Of a stretch of DNA of 64,000 bases, positions 19,452-20,631 are shown piece after piece. A program made the translations under genes and the position numbers. The stretch comes from Heptranchias perlo. Lineage: Eukaryota. Location of the stretch: NCBI RefSeq assembly GCF_035084215.1, contig NW_027138407.1, positions 682,001 through 746,000 on the forward strand, read 5' to 3'. The notes beneath the pieces are model-generated. The model was given only the letters and a program-made list of their open reading frames with translations. It was not told the origin of the DNA and searched no databases. Each line of letters begins with the position of its first letter. Position 1 is the first letter of the stretch.

Positions 19452-19482
19452 GGATAAGCGTCAACAGGGGGCGCTGCAAGAC
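19452..19482 (+). promoter_or_regulatory. CTCF-motif element 1 (candidate 3' boundary of the TCRA locus)
   Basis: ggataagcgtCAACAGGGGGCGCtgcaagac matches the CTCF core CCACCAGGGGGCGC; identical to 20601-20631. Confidence 0.75.
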
Positions 19483-19614
19483 TGCTAAACTGCCTTATAG
19501 TTTCTCATATGATTTTTGCATCGATTTTTAAAAAAATATTCCATCATCCATAAATATGAATTATTAAACTTGACTGGCGATAATTCAATCTTACATGTTT
19601 GCATACTGAAAATT

Positions 19615-20000
19615 CCTCTATGGCCCTCGCCCCTCCCTATCTCTGTGACCTCTTCGAGCGCTACAACTCTCTGAGGTCTCTGTGCTCCTCCAGTTCTGGT
19701 CTCTTGCGCATCCCCGATTTTAATCGCTCCACCATTGGCTGAGGTGCCTTCAGCTGCCTAGGCCCTAAGCTCTGGAATTCCCTCCCTAAACCACTCTGCC
19801 TCTCCACCTCTCTCTCTGCTCCTTTAAGGCGCTCCTTAAAACCTACCTCTTTGAGCAAGCTTTTGGTCACCTGTCCTGATATCACCTTATGTGGCTCAGT
19901 GTCAAATTTTGTTTGATAATCGCATCTGTGAAGCGCCTTGGGGACATTTTAGCACGTTAAAGGCGCTATATAAATGCAAGTTGTTGTTGTTGTTGTTGTT
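19615..20000 (+). mobile_element. L2 LINE 3' fragment
   Basis: (GTT)n tail; similar to 2890-3255. Confidence 0.87.
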
Positions 20001-20127
20001 GAATATAAACCGATAAAATGTACAAATGAAAATAGATATTTTAAGTGCATATACAAATTGGGGACAACACGATGCGGCATCTTGAGAATCAATTGGAGAA
20101 AATAACATCAATGTGAAGCATTCAATA

Positions 20128-20362
20128 GTAAACAATTTTACAACACCAAGTTATAGTCCAGCAATTTTATTTTAAATTCACAAGCTTTCGGAGGCTACCT
20201 CCTTCGTCAGGTGAACGATGTGAAAATGCCACATCGTTCACCTGACGAAGGAGGTAGCCTCCGAAAGCTTGTGAATTTAAAATAAAATTGCTGGACTATA
20301 ACTTGGTGTTGTAAAATTGTTTACAATTGTCAACCCCAGTCCATCACCGGCATCTCCACATC
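20128..20362. mobile_element. Penelope-like element terminal fragment forming a perfect palindrome, with minimal hammerhead motif
   Basis: 95-bp perfect inverted arms 20128-20222 / 20230-20324 with a 7-nt loop; CTGACGA..GAAA core, AATAAA, and tail cccagtccatcaccggcatctccacatca resembling chondrichthyan PLE ends (family assignment from recall). Confidence 0.7.
20237..20275 (+). ncRNA. Minimal type I hammerhead-ribozyme-like motif (mirror copy on the - strand at 20177-20215)
   Basis: Stem I TTCAC/GTGAA, CTGACGA core, extra A, stem II GGAGG-tag-CCTCC, GAAA, palindromic AGCT mini stem III, CUU site. Confidence 0.55.
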
Positions 20363-20600
20363 AATCACTCAATAGGCATAGTTTTGCAATCAAATGGATT
20401 ATGATTAAACAAATCAAATTTAAAAAGTAAACTGGAAATTACAAATCAATTTCGGTTTCTTTAAAACATATATTAACTGGCTGTAGGTATGTTATCATCA
20501 CCTGAAACATCATTACGACAGGTGACCAAAAGCTTGGTCAAAGTGGCAGGTTTCAAGGAGCGTCCTGAAGGAGGAGAGCGAGGCGGAGAGGTTTAGGGAG

Positions 20601-20631
20601 GGATAAGCGTCAACAGGGGGCGCTGCAAGAC
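20601..20631 (+). promoter_or_regulatory. CTCF-motif element 2
   Basis: Identical 31-mer to 19452-19482, same orientation. Confidence 0.75.

Follow-up and report, generated by a model that had tools for sequence, protein, structure and literature searches.

A candidate enhancer and CTCF anchor module behind each of two tandem J-alpha/C-alpha cassettes in the TCR-alpha locus of the shark Heptranchias perlo

Two identical, co-oriented CTCF-type elements lie 3' of a C-alpha gene in the shark Heptranchias perlo, which raises the question of whether they are the counterpart of the mouse EACBE, the CTCF-binding elements that lie downstream of E-alpha, an enhancer, and whether they serve as the 3' loop anchor of the locus, as the earlier note on this DNA had proposed. 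The elements occur in a 64-kb window, the whole stretch that was analysed (C240:682001-746000, where C240 is contig NW_027138407.1); positions given below without a contig name are those of the window. We read the surrounding locus over C240:282001-1146000, or 864 kb of the 1,715-kb contig, and took genome-wide counts over the 3.25-Gb genome. CTCF motifs were scored with a matrix modelled on JASPAR MA0139.1, for which the maximum is 27 bits. A forward CTCF motif anchors loops towards higher coordinates, and in this locus that is the direction of the V genes.

Two tandem J-alpha/C-alpha cassettes

Read along the minus strand, the locus runs from the V genes through D/J/C-delta, J-alpha array 1, C-alpha1, the CTCF pair and J-alpha array 2 to C-alpha2. 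The V genes lie from 817 kb up on the contig, where we count 84 V-like exons (41 on the plus and 43 on the minus strand), and D/J/C-delta lies at ~792–805 kb, with IgH-like V segments adjoining D-delta. Exon and J/RSS reading confirms the earlier placement of C-alpha and a J array within the window. C-alpha1 includes a hinge exon read from the sequence (35360..35407, minus strand) and a transmembrane exon (33649..33756, minus strand) with the Arg/Lys pattern of the TCR-alpha type. Patches of homology to C240:630344-631380 at 30714..32196 on the minus strand are likely a 3' UTR exon of the same gene. The trac signature CLxTD+F (Giorgetti 2023, PMC10322711) is present in its Ig exon (35532..35831, minus strand). 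Within the window, the sequence reading identifies 24 J-alpha segments flanked by 12-spacer RSS (40915..61970, minus strand), and the whole of J-alpha array 1 comprises at least 44 J at 723–767 kb, reaching C240:767211. There are recent block duplications of a ~6.5-kb unit in this array (49900–62000) and of a ~21.7-kb unit in the V array (C240:887–944 kb), the latter with CTCF motifs copied along with the V genes.

A second cassette (C240:635102-678002) lies outside the window and contains J-alpha array 2, with at least 24 J at 644–678 kb, and an intact C-alpha2 at 635 kb that is 72% identical to C-alpha1 in amino-acid sequence. A genome search for C-alphas returned these two and a haplotype copy of C-alpha2 on contig C820, and no more. 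The possibility that cassette 2 is an assembly artefact was ruled out by the 72% protein identity, by introns that mostly do not align between C-alpha1 and C-alpha2, and by the haplotype contig C820 (96–99%). The Ig exons of C-alpha1 (35532–35831) and C-alpha2 (C240:635105-635405) share long near-identical tracts, silent sites included, and are divergent at both ends; near-identical tracts set between divergent patches suggest that gene conversion may act in the locus. Protein searches for shark C-alpha relatives, which were meant to date the cassette duplication, found no relatives.

This arrangement departs from the canonical layout trdc-(traj)n-trac described by Giorgetti 2023, in which one TRAC is listed for the bamboo shark (PMC10322711). 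According to the same source, J clusters were defined between trdc and trac, and a second cassette could therefore be missed. The literature searched did not describe an enhancer or 3' CTCF anchor of shark TCR-alpha, or tandem J-C cassettes, although tandem cassettes may be in print.

The CTCF pair lies 13–14 kb 3' of the C-alpha1 transmembrane exon and 23.5 kb 5' of J array 2. With a further J-alpha/C-alpha cassette on its far side, the pair is internal to the locus and does not form its 3' boundary, and on this point the proposal that it is the 3' anchor of the locus is not supported. DAD1 is also absent from C240, with its hits on contigs C3 and C5. The exons beyond cassette 2 are of PARP14-like, zinc-finger, Ig-C1, and importin-like type, by a Pfam scan covering 121 of the 140 low-repeat ORFs with a length of 105 aa or more; the PARP14-like genes occur on both strands at C240:400000-530000 and the importin-like exons at ~316 kb.

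The search for convergent CTCF sites among the V genes, a check suggested earlier, returned 49 hits of at least 14 bits in 329 kb, 25 forward and 24 reverse; about half of the V-region sites face away because the V genes themselves lie in both orientations. A CTCF motif occurs within 2 kb upstream of 40 of the 84 V exons, and 30 of these motifs are on the strand of their V. At the same threshold the J-C region contains seven motifs in 217 kb (six forward, one reverse), and a control stretch at 345–600 kb contains four in 255 kb. Motif density is thus 14.9 per 100 kb among the V genes versus 1.6 downstream. Excluded from the control are 36 co-oriented CTCF-like hits of at least 14 bits in a minisatellite with a ~30-bp unit (C240:333000-343000), which lies close to an Ig V exon (352.8 kb) paired with a C1 exon (349.9 kb).

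A forward, V-facing motif of 19.2 bits at C240:767865, ~0.65 kb 5' of the first J-alpha, is positioned like the TEA site of mouse and has RUNX and E-box motifs directly before it (C240:767830-767890). In this site and in its dense V-region motifs, the remainder of the locus is laid out on the mouse plan. A second V-facing motif (21.8 bits) occurs at 773303, 5.4 kb beyond. In cassette 2 there is no site of at least 11 bits between the first J (678002) and 693743, in contrast to the one in cassette 1 (767865). Both motifs of the pair are forward on the plus strand, in the same sense as the TEA-like site, and so face V. A further forward CTCF-like motif (11743–11761, 16.0 bits) lies between the pair and J array 2, in a run that BLAST, though not the k-mer mask, marks as repeat-covered.

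The 31-mer pair and the site behind C-alpha2

The 31-mer occurs at 19452..19482 (copy 1) and 20601..20631 (copy 2), both on the plus strand and 1,149 bp apart, in agreement with the earlier note. In the window it has two matches at up to three mismatches, with none in 100 shuffles, and the genome-wide count that had been proposed as a check likewise yields two matches at up to two mismatches in 3.25 Gb, with none in the reversed control. Each copy contains a forward CTCF core motif of 14.2 bits (19458–19476 and 20607–20625), placed centrally with 6 nt on each side. On this matrix, 14.2 of 27 bits corresponds to p ~5e-6 and is among the weakest scores listed in the locus; alone it is unremarkable, since chance would yield ~4.9 hits of at least 14 bits per strand over the 864 kb (a reversed-sequence control gave three and four).

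The 520 bp that begin with copy 2 match only themselves and copy 1 (76% over 101 nt). As the earlier note described, homologous but diverged sequence of ~100 bp follows each copy, with 75 of 108 aligned columns identical (69%), but the alignment is firm over only ~70 bp per copy (19483..19552 and 20632..20700, both on the plus strand); its score was reached by none of 2000 shuffles. By this comparison of sequences, the doubling of the site is a local tandem duplication. At the flank rate of 69%, an identity run of at least 31 arose in 0.044% of 200,000 simulations. The first 3–4 nt of the 31-mer (GGA/GGAT) are, however, the ends of two different repeats that adjoin the copies, identified by repeat comparison as a repeat fragment before copy 1 (19403..19455) and an inverted SINE-like fragment before copy 2 (20512..20603, minus strand); 17 of 45 hits stop at 19455 and 28 of 43 at 20603. 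The tract identical by descent is consequently ~27–28 nt. The earlier argument that selection kept the CTCF core is supported by the agreement of all 31 positions amid flanks of 69% identity, although gene conversion could also have equalised the two 31-mers. Between the copies, at 20123–20329, lies a MITE-like, near-perfect inverted repeat of 207 bp (100-nt arms, 99%), and a palindrome resembling it occurs at 31000–31111.

Approximately 10 kb 3' of the C-alpha2 transmembrane exon there is a single forward CTCF motif (C240:622248-622266, 17.5 bits), as opposed to the two of the pair. From motif position 3 it is identical to copy 2 at 24 of 27 nt, and it differs from the motif of the pair at positions 1, 2, and 8, all of them low-information positions (P=0.011); the two non-consensus bases that the motifs have in common are expected from common descent. 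Its flank has weak homology to the flank of copy 2, with a score reached by 1.05% of 2000 shuffles, and each of the three sites has a repeat directly 5' of it. A degenerate 23-nt core has four matches genome-wide, two of them in the pair, one at the cassette 2 site and one in the alternative-haplotype copy of that site. Assignment of the 31-mer to a high-copy repeat is ruled out by the genome-wide counts for the 31-mer, its flank and the degenerate core. These comparisons support the CTCF-type motif of the pair as real, non-repetitive and selectively retained.

Cassette 2 additionally contains a reverse CTCF site (C240:623357, 16.6 bits) with no counterpart in cassette 1. A CpG-rich patch surrounds the forward site (C240:622000-622500; 61% GC, CpG o/e 0.95) and contains CCAAT-, GC-box-, YY1-, and CRE-like motifs; an 80-bp part of it recurs at C240:827.6 kb, at 1171.7 kb and on contig C383.

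A conserved element beside the CTCF sites

Comparison of the C genes and their flanks between the two cassettes (44.7 kb with 53.8 kb) gave 11 low-repeat alignments, of which the sole strong one beyond the transcript and outside repeat-covered stretches pairs 21630–21834 with C240:622829-623043 (69% over 221 nt, E ~1e-15, with identical blocks of 21 and 17 nt). The remainder consists of exons, patches that are likely 3' UTR, hits of low strength, and two hits (6975 and 12064) that match dispersed repeats or lie in them. This conserved non-coding element (21620..21870), a candidate E-alpha-like enhancer, has four matches in all genome-wide. The CTCF motif and the RUNX site of the element are 588 bp apart in cassette 2 and 1,030 bp apart in cassette 1, where a SINE-like repeat (21149..21523) between copy 2 and the element has widened a spacing of ~655 bp. 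In a haplotype comparison, site and element together show four substitutions in 0.9 kb, versus 2.1 and 12.2 per kb on either side.

The RUNX, MYB, ETS, E-box, and GATA sites were called by motif strings. With these, the element contains a RUNX site at 21655, a MYB site at 21662, an ETS core at 21670, E-boxes at 21686 and 21796, and a GATA site at 21740, all kept in the paralogue; adjacent RUNX and MYB sites are reminiscent of E-delta and E-gamma. Counting all instances, six of nine are kept, versus a rate of 22% for all 6-mers (p=0.006, post hoc). Two of three E-boxes and one of two GATA sites are kept, so the accessory combination of E2A/HEB and GATA3 sites is present within ~200 nt. The core factors of E-alpha are CREB/ATF, LEF1/TCF1, RUNX1, and ETS1 (bioRxiv 10.64898/2026.04.27.721065), and by the motif strings the element has conserved RUNX and ETS core sites but no consensus CRE or TCF/LEF site, which leaves it with two of the four. 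Nor is it outstanding in a motif-density scan, where its three of six kinds are reached by 110 of 476 non-repeat windows. From its conservation and motifs we infer that the element at 21620–21870 may be a T-cell enhancer that opens its J array.

A segmental copy (~6 kb) of the window at ~18–23 kb is found in the V array (C240:879100-885300, 71–82% identical), ~0.9 kb from a V RSS. The element is retained there along with the 3' portion of each unit, but both CTCF sites are missing, the best CTCF score across 879–882 kb being 6 bits, and the copy's version of the element has lost the ETS core and one E-box. Identity to the element is 83–94%, barely above that of the adjoining LINE (81–88%). Because the V-array copy is without the CTCF sites, the ETS core and one E-box, such DNA can persist without them.

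Readings of the pair and comparison with known loci

The anatomy of the locus, the uniqueness of the sites and their conservation between paralogues are observed directly. The reading we favor, and consider probable, takes the pair for one half of a predicted enhancer-plus-anchor module, namely the half that likely binds CTCF, doubled locally. The module would have been duplicated with the whole J-alpha/C-alpha cassette, leaving one behind the C gene of each cassette. In this model the element would be an enhancer that opens its own J array; cohesin loaded there would be stopped by the V-facing CTCF sites, and the chromatin of J, TEA, and V would be reeled in towards these sites, which would also shield J array 2 from enhancer 1. 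A deletional V-to-J2 join would delete module 1, and cassette 2 would keep a module of its own for this reason. A CTCF orientation code and loop extrusion have been reported in skate (PMC10115646).

With a module of its own, each cassette could be activated and folded independently. Its elements are also concrete candidates for shielding shark TCR-alpha from trans-rearrangement, a matter that PMC12227049 leaves open while suggesting chromatin configuration. Moreover, thanks to the cassette duplication, a candidate enhancer of 250 bp and the CTCF site that accompanies it can be located without recourse to other genomes, which makes the age of enhancer- and loop-guided TCR-alpha rearrangement directly testable. 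A broader proposal, which we offer tentatively and regard as possible rather than probable, is that two tandem cassettes on one V array each have an enhancer and a V-facing CTCF anchor; that the full mouse-type layout of V-associated sites, TEA site and 3' enhancer with anchor is ancestral to jawed vertebrates, with the direction of the 3' anchor lineage-specific; and that the internal doubled anchor rations access to a reserve cassette for receptor editing.

Alternatively, the sites may be ordinary or decaying CTCF motifs without a role at TCR-alpha, the identity of the copies being due to short gene conversion or to chance after the tandem duplication. The moderate score and the ~4.9 chance hits per strand in 864 kb would allow this, as would the patchwork identity of the C-alpha exons with its suggestion of conversion, the loss of both sites from the V-array copy, and the derivation of 3–4 of the 31 nt from unrelated repeats. 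We nevertheless consider this explanation unlikely: at a distance of 80 kb, a paralogue of far greater age has retained the motif, which is altered at tolerant positions only and stands equally far from the corresponding conserved element, and the identical tract of the pair is centred on the motif.

Somewhat less likely again, though compatible with the module favored here, is that the pair is mainly a TEA-type upstream landing anchor for J array 2 that draws V genes towards cassette 2. The CTCF site at the mouse TEA promoter faces V (PMC5859386), and the pair shares with it both this orientation and a position upstream of a J-alpha array; cassette 2, unlike cassette 1, also has no site of its own of at least 11 bits from its first J to 693743. 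However, the pair is not immediately 5' of that cassette's first J but separated from it by 23.5 kb, the positional match to the mouse site being C240:767865. The paralogue behind C-alpha2, where no J array follows, further indicates that the pair arose as a 3' element.

We rate lower still, as improbable, that the pair is a true orthologue of the mammalian EACBE with the same working, namely an end-of-locus boundary that faces away from TCR-alpha. With mouse E-alpha and EACBE the pair has in common that two co-oriented motifs are situated several kb or more 3' of C-alpha, past an element that is an enhancer in mouse and enhancer-like in the shark, at a distance of ~0.5–0.65 kb (in cassette 1 net of the SINE) (PMC7515734, PMC12310595, bioRxiv 10.64898/2026.04.27.721065), and the shark element has RUNX, ETS, E-box, and GATA sites. 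As these sources give it, the mouse EACBE lies 500 bp downstream of core E-alpha with its two motifs within 197 bp (PMC7515734), the sites being co-oriented (bioRxiv 10.64898/2026.04.27.721065) and directed away from the TCR-alpha locus (PMC5859386). The shark sites instead face V and are spaced by 1,149 bp, their doubling is local, and their place is inside the locus, with a J-C cassette on either side. There is no linkage to DAD1, which is on C3 and C5, the next downstream genes are PARP14-like, and the candidate element lacks a CRE or TCF/LEF consensus. The suggestion of an EACBE counterpart thus holds for a CTCF-type motif 13–14 kb 3' of the C-alpha1 transmembrane exon with an enhancer-like element at about the mouse spacing, but not for the direction or the place in the locus. 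That the 31-mer is part of a transposon spreading CTCF sites genome-wide we consider highly improbable, for although repeats adjoin the 5' side of all three sites, there are only two genome-wide matches to the 31-mer and four to the degenerate core, and no other hit to the flank.

In functional type, the proposed enhancer-plus-anchor module would combine an E-alpha-like enhancer with a V-facing 3' anchor of the Igh 3'CBE or Tcrb type, and would not correspond exactly to the mouse EACBE, under which name we would not class it. The earlier expectation that forward motifs pointing towards V are what a 3' anchor should show is right as to orientation, but this fits the Igh 3'CBEs and the Tcrb 3' site, whereas the mouse EACBE faces away (PMC5859386). 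Like the 3'CBEs of Igh and, in Tcrb, the site downstream of E-beta, the pair is located 3' of a C gene and its putative enhancer and is directed towards V-region CTCF sites (PMC5859386, PMC7696796); it differs from the Igh 3'CBEs in belonging to a TCR-alpha locus and in having two sites rather than an array of 9–10. The tandem cassettes, each with its own candidate 3' enhancer, resemble the mouse Tcrg clusters, where an E-gamma lies behind each C-gamma (PMC7696796). In contrast to Tcrg, the shark cassettes consist of J and C only, share one common V array, and have large J arrays (at least 44 and at least 24).
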